64,000 bases of DNA from Methanobacteriota archaeon (lineage in GTDB: Archaea; Thermoplasmatota; Poseidoniia; Poseidoniales; Thalassarchaeaceae), in NCBI GenBank assembly GCA_002708695.1, contig PAOZ01000012.1, positions 4,280 to 68,279 on the forward strand, read 5' to 3'. The translations under genes and the position numbers were made by a program. The notes under the pieces were generated by a model. The model saw only the letters and a list, made by a program, of their open reading frames with translations. It did not search any database and had not been told where the DNA came from. This document shows, piece after piece, positions 12,710-14,293 of the stretch. Each line of letters starts with the position of its first letter. Positions within the stretch are counted from its first letter, which is position 1.

Positions 12710-14293
12710 TTAATCCTCATTAGGAACGTAATATAAATCTACACTCCCAGTTCCAAGAGCAACGGGTTGACCAACAATAATATTCTCAGCGACACCTGTT
12801 AAGTGATCTATCTCTCCTCGAATTCCAGCATTCAATAAATGATTCACAGTTACCTCGAATGCAGCTCTAGCAAGAATACTATGCTTATTTCCAGAAACAC
12901 CGTGACGGCCAATTGCTCTAACTTCACCTTCTGAGGTCATTACATCAGAAACTGTCAGTAAGTGACGGACATCTACATTCAATCCTGCACCTTCCAAAGT
13001 CATTGACATCTCATTGATGATTGACTGGCGAGCCGCCTCAATTCCAAGATATTTATGAATCTCCATAATGTTATTTGTATAAGTTCGAGATCTATCGACA
13101 CCCTTGAATTCACTAACCTTAGCCAAATTACTCCCAATGGTAGAGATATAGTACTCACCCGTATCCTTTGTAGGACCCTGGATATTAGCACGAATTACAT
13201 CCTTAACTCCCTTCAATTTAACCTTCTTTACTTTGTCTTCAAGAGCAAGTAAATCTGTATATGTAGGAGGGTTTGAACTAAGATCGGCCATTTCCTCTTC
13301 CTTCTTTACCCCTGGTACAATTGTCAATTCCTTAGGTTTCACATCATCATCTGCACCGACATATAATCGAAGGCTGCGAGATAGTTTGTCACGAACTTCA
13401 CTTGCAGTCATATCCTTCATTCGAAGATTCTTGTTGTTTAATGATAAAGTCAAAAATCTCTGAGCAACGTTTACTTCTATGCCTGCAATATCTCCAGTTA
13501 AAGTAGTCTCCAAAGATGCTGCAAGTTTCTGCACTTTCTTCTCTTCAGTATTGAAAGGCTTTCCTTTCTCATCTGTTGCATCAAGATAAATATTCATTGT
13601 TGGAGTTTCAGGTGTCTTTCTTGCATCTACAATCTCAATAATCCGAGGAAGACCTTGGGTAACGTTAACTGTCGCTACACCCGCATAATGGAAAGTACGC
13701 ATAGTCATCTGAGTGCCAGGTTCACCAATTGATTGTGCTGTAATGATGCCCACTGCCTCAAATGGATCAACTCTTGTTCTAAACAAAGCAGACGACATAG
13801 AATCAATTACACCTGCAACTTGCTTAGCTGTAAGTTTAGTTACATTACGAGAACGAAGACCTAATACCAAATCATGAATCATTCTAGGGGTTAACCAGAC
13901 TCCTTTGTCGATTGCGGCATTCCTAATCTGATCAAAAAGTGGATCATCCATTGTCTCAAACATGTCTCGCTCAATCTGAGCCATTTTGTTTGATTGATCA
14001 TAGTGTTGAAGACTGCGTATTGTTTCAGATCTTCTACGAGTTGCACGCTTTCTCTTAATTGTAAATGTTTGAGCGGCAGGTGTTGCTTTATTTCCTTTAG
14101 CAGCATTCTGAATAATTGCATGTATTGTTTCACCAGACTTCGAATCAGTACCACAAATCTTGGCAATTTCAACAGGTGTCAATAATTTTACATCATCCCA
14201 TTTTCTATCATCTGCAAGTTCGTGGGCATAATTCTCCTGAACTCCCAAATCTTGGAGTTTCTTCTTGGTTGCACTCTTTACAGTCATACTCAC
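12710..14293 (-). CDS. rpoA2: DNA-directed RNA polymerase subunit A'' with about 100-aa N-terminal HhH-like/basic extension
   Basis: Core '[27 protein letters not shown]...[12 protein letters not shown]...[22 protein letters not shown]'. ATGA overlap with rpoA'. The N-terminal '[25 protein letters not shown]...' is homologous to the RpoH N-terminus. Confidence 0.92.

Follow-up and report, generated by a model that had tools for sequence, protein, structure and literature searches.

Paralogous N-Terminal Modules of a Predicted (HhH)2-Type Fold on RNA Polymerase Subunits RpoA'' and RpoH of Marine Group II Archaea

Results and Discussion

The RNA Polymerase Operon and Its Extended Subunits

The 64,000-nucleotide stretch of DNA analyzed here (the window) carries one archaeal RNA polymerase operon, rpoH-rpoB-rpoA'-rpoA'', and all features of the locus described below lie on the minus strand. 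The closest RpoH homologues are annotated as Candidatus Thalassarchaeaceae / Thermoplasmatota, which assigns the genome to Marine Group II (Poseidoniales). The rpoH gene (21078-21662) encodes a protein of 194 amino acids, rpoA'' (12710-14287) one of 525 amino acids counted from an ATG at 14287, and rpoB (17379-21065) and rpoA' (14290-17382) lie between them. Coverage of RpoH by curated Pfam and NCBIfam models is limited to residues 93-192 (PF01191 at residues 94-190, NF007129 at residues 93-192); on RpoA'', which matches PF04998 with an E-value of 1.5e-48, the TIGR02389 match is limited to residues 153-519. The N-terminus of RpoA'' comprises a module of predicted (HhH)2 type (amino acids 1-65; 14093-14287), delimited by its five AlphaFold2 helices and by Foldseek, and a basic linker (amino acids 66-110; 13958-14092) assigned as disordered from pLDDT and charge. 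Similarly, RpoH begins with a module of the same predicted type (amino acids 1-62; 21477-21662), identified by paralogy and AlphaFold2, and continues into a linker (amino acids 63-102; 21357-21476) that is basic at first (TRNRKSRSVKRT) and acidic after.

The ORF finder began RpoA'' at a GTG (14293), but the real start is the ATG at 14287 (MTVKS...), which lies 2 nt past the rpoA' TGA (14290-14292) and downstream of GGAGGTG (14295-14301). This segment, consisting of the rpoA' stop and a Shine-Dalgarno sequence (14290-14301), is conserved in 14 Poseidoniales loci as GGAGGTG-N5-6-TGATG or a near variant, and by its sequence the rpoA'/rpoA'' junction is a classic case of translational coupling. 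An internal A'' start was considered, and is excluded by the conserved Shine-Dalgarno sequence and the rpoA' stop/start junction. The trigger-loop anchor SIGEPGTQ is found at residue 185 here versus residue 75 in an unextended A'' of 390 aa; the A'' extension therefore measures 110 aa and the core runs from about residue 110, in good agreement with the initial annotation, which had placed its beginning near residue 105.

On the same strand as rpoH, a tRNA-Lys(UUU) gene (21712-21787) ends about 50 nt before the rpoH ATG, and the 3' end of this tRNA is kept upstream of rpoH in other Poseidoniales loci. Because of this conservation, rpoH may be co-transcribed with the tRNA or may be driven from a very short promoter region.

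Paralogy and Conservation of the Two N-Termini

The proposal that the N-terminus of RpoA'' matches the RpoH extension position by position was borne out by a gapless alignment with 21 of 46 residues identical (46%) and 32 of 46 positive (BLASTP E 3e-11). The similarity is significant by shuffling statistics, with a Smith-Waterman score of 101 against 25.8 ± 4.6 in 5000 shuffles, none of which equaled it (z 16.4, Gumbel p 4e-10). In many relatives, the similarity between A'' and H extends to about residue 80, spanning the second hairpin and the basic linker.

To describe the distribution of the module, 61 genomes of the order (including that of the window) were sampled and combined with a profile search across the class, for a total of 76 Poseidoniales genomes. 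The module is present in all 76, and in 73 of them it occurs exactly twice, on RpoH and on RpoA''. In the three remaining genomes, one shows the A'' copy only (G019), one has a third match because the A'' copy is duplicated on another contig (G038), and one has a third match that is a chance-level fragment (G025, E 0.03). No copy of the module was found in 44 of 45 genomes of the sister order of the same class, and the remaining genome gave a chance-level match; the RpoH open frames of the sister order are short (81-121 aa).

Across genera, identity in A'' is 65.7% for the module, 38.6% for the linker and 68.2% for the core, and the corresponding values for H are 57.3, 44.6 and 64.3%. As module identity is close to core identity, the head is about as constrained as the core, and the first ~35 residues of the module are strongly conserved. 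Taken together, the sequence comparisons indicate that the A'' and H modules are paralogues that are translated and under purifying selection. The near-core identity and the fixed start site thus uphold the view of the initial annotation that the shared N-termini reflect selection and not mis-annotation.

Predicted Fold, Tethers and Charge

AlphaFold2 models were built from an alignment of 22 sequences for the module and of 44 sequences for full-length RpoH. The A'' module is predicted to fold between residues 4 and 65 (helices 6-13, 18-25, 30-34, 38-45 and 49-65; pLDDT ~85), and in the tail after it pLDDT falls below 50 from residue 68. In full-length RpoH, the head occupies residues 4-62 (helices 6-13, 18-24, 30-33, 38-45 and 52-62; pLDDT ~85), followed by a linker with pLDDT below 50 (residues 67-102) and a normal Rpb5_C core (residues 104-194); the pTM of 0.45 suggests that head and core are arranged as two beads on a string. 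The AlphaFold2 models contain the elements of the (HhH)2 topology, namely two helix-hairpin-helix motifs and a connector helix, five helices in all.

In Foldseek searches against the PDB, nearly all of the best matches were (HhH)2 domains (rmsd ~2 Å over 54-62 residues, probability 0.9-0.99), at E-values of just 0.3-3 and with no match of the module at E ≤ 0.001. The top matches include the RadA/Rad51 N-terminal domain, NusA AR, FANCM-FAAP24, Hef and UvrC. From the AlphaFold2 models, the module is predicted to be a five-helix (HhH)2-type fold. Scans of the module with Pfam, NCBIfam and PHROGs assigned no family, and the Marine Group II module had no match in Pfam even at E ≤ 10. Additionally, a profile search of the module against all PDB chains gave just two chance-level matches, neither of them Rpo13, and no link to the alpha-CTD. 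The two hairpins of the module are LGV and CG[TI]D, without the canonical GhG.

Between each head and its subunit core runs a flexible tether that is 30-50 residues long and rich in Arg and Lys. Mean net linker charge is +6.9 in A'' (14 orthologues; 38.6% identity, as above) and +2.9 in RpoH, and the folded heads are slightly acidic (net charge -1.4 in A'' and -1.2 in H), such that the basic parts are the N-terminal VKSxTKKK stretch and the linker only.

An Older A'' Module in the Thermoplasmatota

Weak profile matches elsewhere in the phylum are to the N-termini of A''. A comparison of A'' lengths across the Thermoplasmatota, as the initial annotation had suggested, gave open frames of 375 to 970 aa. 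Many of these proteins begin with a MAKKDT.NAL.RRG-type module followed by a poly-Lys linker; in some, this is supplemented by canonical Pfam HHH_5 domains (two or three; E 2e-36) or by another domain without an assigned family. HHH_5 occupies the A'' position that the module has in Marine Group II, in some cases C-terminal to the older module. Profile-profile comparison with hhalign aligned the Marine Group II module and the older A'' module over 55 columns, starting from residues 3-4 of both profiles (probability 95.8%, E 6.9e-9). In named genomes, 155 stretches were confirmed by a scan; among the best 80 of the 155, 55 are A'', and the hosts of older-module A'' include Methanomassiliicoccaceae, Methanomethylophilaceae, Candidatus Saliniplasma, Candidatus Natronoplasma and other Thermoplasmata. 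In the tree, the Marine Group II A'' and H modules and those of the mobile-element proteins described below form one long-branch clade (97/98) apart from the older modules.

The hhalign homology, the distribution on A'' and the tree together indicate that the A'' head was inherited and diverged, and that the H head arose by duplication of the A'' head in Marine Group II. By these sequence comparisons, the A'' copy descends from an older A'' module widespread in the Thermoplasmatota, and the copy on RpoH is confined to Marine Group II. The statement in the initial annotation that both jaw subunits acquired paralogous modules accordingly holds for the paralogy but not for the implied symmetry, since the A'' copy is older and what is new in Marine Group II is the RpoH copy alone.

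The A'' subunits of many other Thermoplasmatota are 500-970 aa in length (L058, L059 of the sister order, L061, L067, L063-L065, L075) and have an extra N-terminal domain of about 150-200 aa (IWSLP.GYTIE...PVRSARNYT), which has no Pfam match. In some lineages this domain is present without any HhH module.

Module-Bearing Proteins of Mobile Elements

A profile search of 1.84 billion representatives identified 208 proteins with the module, about 57 of which are neither RpoH nor RpoA'' nor fragments of these. In the latter proteins the module comes first and is followed by unrelated C-terminal parts that form at least 12 multi-member families, with no homologue in this genome except for the TFB-like repeat of P0195. 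When scored with both profiles, 45 of the ~57 score higher with the A''-type than with the H-type module profile.

Two of these proteins (P0212 and P0225) are encoded on contigs that are syntenic with, and 80-85% protein-identical to, a 17.6-kb contig (L077 1-17586), the last 10.7 kb of which have a 99.8% identical copy on a 32-kb contig of another record (L077/L078; two metagenome records). The L077 element encodes a primase-polymerase (PrimPol), a TFB that is 51% identical to the TFB of this genome, an N6/N4 DNA methylase, an Hjc-like nuclease (resolvase), WYL_2 and DUF3846 proteins, as well as tRNA-Lys and tRNA-Leu. The orthologue of the P0212/P0225 gene on this element lacks the module and starts MDYQEWYWWTPFDV. 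Among the other architectures, P0195 consists of the module, a linker and one TFIIB cyclin repeat without a zinc ribbon, P0214 (L076 1012-3567; 851 aa) combines C2H2-type zinc fingers and the module (residues 93-159) with an AAA_15/AAA_21 ATPase of a type known from defense systems, and P0197 is a protein of 1292 aa on a contig of small same-strand genes. No module-bearing proteins or elements of this sort were found in four scans of IMG/VR or in INPHARED, and we therefore refer to them as mobile-element proteins and not as viral.

Two candidate observations were rejected. The tRNA-Lys of the element was compared with the tRNA-Lys that precedes rpoH in the host, as a match could have marked an integration site; they are related but have different acceptor stems, which gives no evidence of an att site. 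Some apparent new architectures (P0183, P0184, P0261 and P0270) are read-end fragments that run into adapter-like sequence, with VSYTHLTLPTSDLV, LLYTSPSPRD and SLIHI taken to be translated sequencing adapter.

A further family with the module (P0202, P0208, P0213, P0219 and P0268; alignment A3) has an internal GFRGLGSLF and a C-terminal DGLGSLFG, which by sequence look like a short linear docking motif.

Potential Role of the Tethered Heads

HHH_5 domains are classical non-specific binders of double-stranded DNA, and (HhH)2 domains also bind proteins, for example in NusA AR2 and XPF-ERCC1. On account of the fold class, the basic tethers and the presence of canonical HHH_5 at this A'' position in relatives, we favor a role in which the tethered heads and their basic tethers grip DNA non-specifically near the lower jaw, which we regard as probable, though far from assured. 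H and A'' are the lower-jaw subunits beside downstream DNA (PMC2847245), and Rpo13 binds downstream double-stranded DNA non-specifically at that end of the channel (PMC3479171). In such a model, the two (HhH)2 heads and their tethers would add sequence-independent contacts to duplex DNA, either to downstream DNA at the entry channel or to flanking promoter DNA within reach of the tethers, and these contacts would stabilize initiation and elongation complexes. Such a task would be of the kind performed by Sulfolobus Rpo13, by the eukaryotic Rpb5 jaw and by the pair of tethered alpha-CTDs of bacteria. The significant paralogy, the homology to the older A'' module, the near-core conservation across Poseidoniales and the two HhH motifs with which the alpha-CTD contacts DNA (PMC5101437) also speak for the model. 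DNA binding and the site of action of the heads are inferred, and several points speak against them. The head is slightly acidic, and only the VKSxTKKK stretch and the linker are basic; the LGV and CG[TI]D hairpins depart from GhG and have no Pfam HhH model match; and the E-values with which Foldseek relates the predicted models to (HhH)2 domains are weak (0.3-3).

The non-basic head, the conserved first 35 residues and the reuse by mobile-element proteins keep alive a second role, in which the module is a handle that docks onto a conserved partner, be it the other module, a chromatin protein or a transcription factor, and is copied by mobile elements to reach the host transcription machinery. 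The ~35 conserved N-terminal residues shared with mobile-element proteins point to a specific partner rather than to generic DNA affinity, and the presence of NusA AR and FANCM-FAAP24 among the best fold matches is in keeping with protein binding. Likewise, the attachment of the module to unrelated C-terminal parts in at least 12 multi-member families (~57 of the 208 proteins), the closer resemblance of 45 of these proteins to the A''-type than to the H-type profile, the fusion to a TFIIB cyclin repeat without a zinc ribbon in P0195, and the synteny of the P0212/P0225 contigs with a PrimPol/TFB element whose orthologous gene is without the module are all consistent with docking. Set against this, a DNA-binding head would be equally useful to a mobile-element protein, canonical DNA-binding HHH_5 is found at the same A'' position in related lineages, the mobile-element contigs are short, and the elements are absent from IMG/VR and INPHARED. 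We consider such docking possible, but unlikely to be the main function.

A more specific proposal, about which we are rather doubtful, is that the module serves as an address tag for the transcription machinery, with Marine Group II mobile elements having repeatedly copied the first 35-60 residues of RpoA'' and, less often, of RpoH. The tag would place a TFB-like cyclin-repeat protein, a protein of 1292 aa and an AAA_15/AAA_21 ATPase where the polymerase heads bind, and if this were true, mobile elements would be mimicking an appendage of the polymerase at the molecular level.

XPF-ERCC1, Hef and FANCM-FAAP24 form heterodimers through their (HhH)2 domains, and dimerizing domains of this class rank high among the fold matches of the module. 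The H and A'' heads could in principle pair likewise into a closed clamp around downstream DNA, as each enzyme has two diverged paralogues on adjacent subunits and the length of the tethers would let the heads reach each other; pairing is nevertheless improbable, because other Thermoplasmatota have the module on A'' only, where it works without a partner copy. Finally, we give almost no credence to an annotation artefact, whether by an internal A'' start with an untranslated upstream frame or by chance or low-complexity similarity, for although the ORF finder's first A'' start was a GTG overlapping the rpoA' stop, the shuffle test (z 16.4) and the conserved start junction, with the ATG behind GGAGGTG and overlapping or abutting the rpoA' stop, rule it out, and the module and its open frame are kept in all 76 sampled genomes, A'' module identity (65.7%) is near that of the core (68.2%), and the fold is confidently predicted by AlphaFold2.

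Comparison With Known Polymerase Appendages

In the surface ocean, the archaea of Marine Group II belong to the most abundant of their domain; to our knowledge, none is in culture and nothing is known of their transcription apparatus. Literature searches returned no description of the module.

The bacterial alpha-CTD, present twice per enzyme on a flexible linker, contacts the minor groove of UP-element DNA with a pair of HhH motifs and also binds regulators (PMC5101437). The module described here is similarly a small two-HhH domain, by prediction, on a flexible linker in two copies per enzyme, but whereas the alpha-CTD is C-terminal and belongs to the assembly-platform subunit, the module is N-terminal, resides on two different lower-jaw subunits (A'' and H) and has a strongly basic linker. 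Pfam RNA_pol_A_CTD had no match to the module, and what the two have in common is limited to architecture and fold class. The predicted five-helix topology is shared with the (HhH)2 domains of the RadA/Rad51 N-terminus, Hef/XPF, NusA AR and HHH_5, which provide the best structural matches; unlike these, the module is without the GhG signature, and the VKSxTKK N-terminal stretch is unique to its family. Rpo13 of the Sulfolobales differs from the module in being a separate subunit with a helix-turn-helix-like fold. The Rpb5 N-terminal jaw domain is, like the RpoH head, an extra N-terminal domain on the H/Rpb5 subunit near downstream DNA (PMC2847245), but it has a different, larger fold and is rigidly packed on the C-terminal domain, whereas the RpoH head is tethered by about 35 disordered residues. 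On RpoH, Pfam RNA_pol_Rpb5_N gave no match, and RNA_pol_Rpb5_C matched residues 94-190 only.

Tethered HhH heads, conserved as a pair on the lower jaw, would provide a multisubunit polymerase with a third independent route to extra DNA or regulator contacts, the other two being the bacterial alpha-CTDs and the crenarchaeal Rpo13 or eukaryotic Rpb5 jaw. The older A'' module is also present in Methanomassiliicoccaceae and Methanomethylophilaceae, lineages with cultured species, which could make the idea amenable to testing at the bench. Moreover, the reuse of the head provides a sequence handle for finding proteins of poorly known mobile elements, and hints at a host-parasite interface on the polymerase.

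Related Proteins Elsewhere in the Genome

The search for further copies of the module that the initial annotation called for was carried out on the genome of the window with tblastn and HMMs, and no Marine Group II-type copy was found beyond those on H and A''. One distant third copy, of the older type, is present outside the window in a protein of 361 aa (contig C5 48742-49827, minus strand), which starts MAKKDTYLALLRRGIDESTAEILADAG, carries a MAKKDT..AL.RRG module at its N-terminus and has a zinc ribbon (CPEC...CWEC) further along. This protein is conserved in the Poseidoniales and has no Pfam or NCBIfam family. Its neighbors, as read from sequence and gene order only, appear to be ksgA, a DUF655-like gene, rpoF and L21e, and it may be a transcription-associated factor.

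Also outside the window, a 150-aa frame on contig C28 (offset 34030, plus strand) encodes a canonical HhH (IPGVGEATAKKL) with a long Lys/Ala/Thr-rich tail. In this stand-alone protein the design of a head with a basic tail recurs, and a role as a chromatin protein is conceivable.
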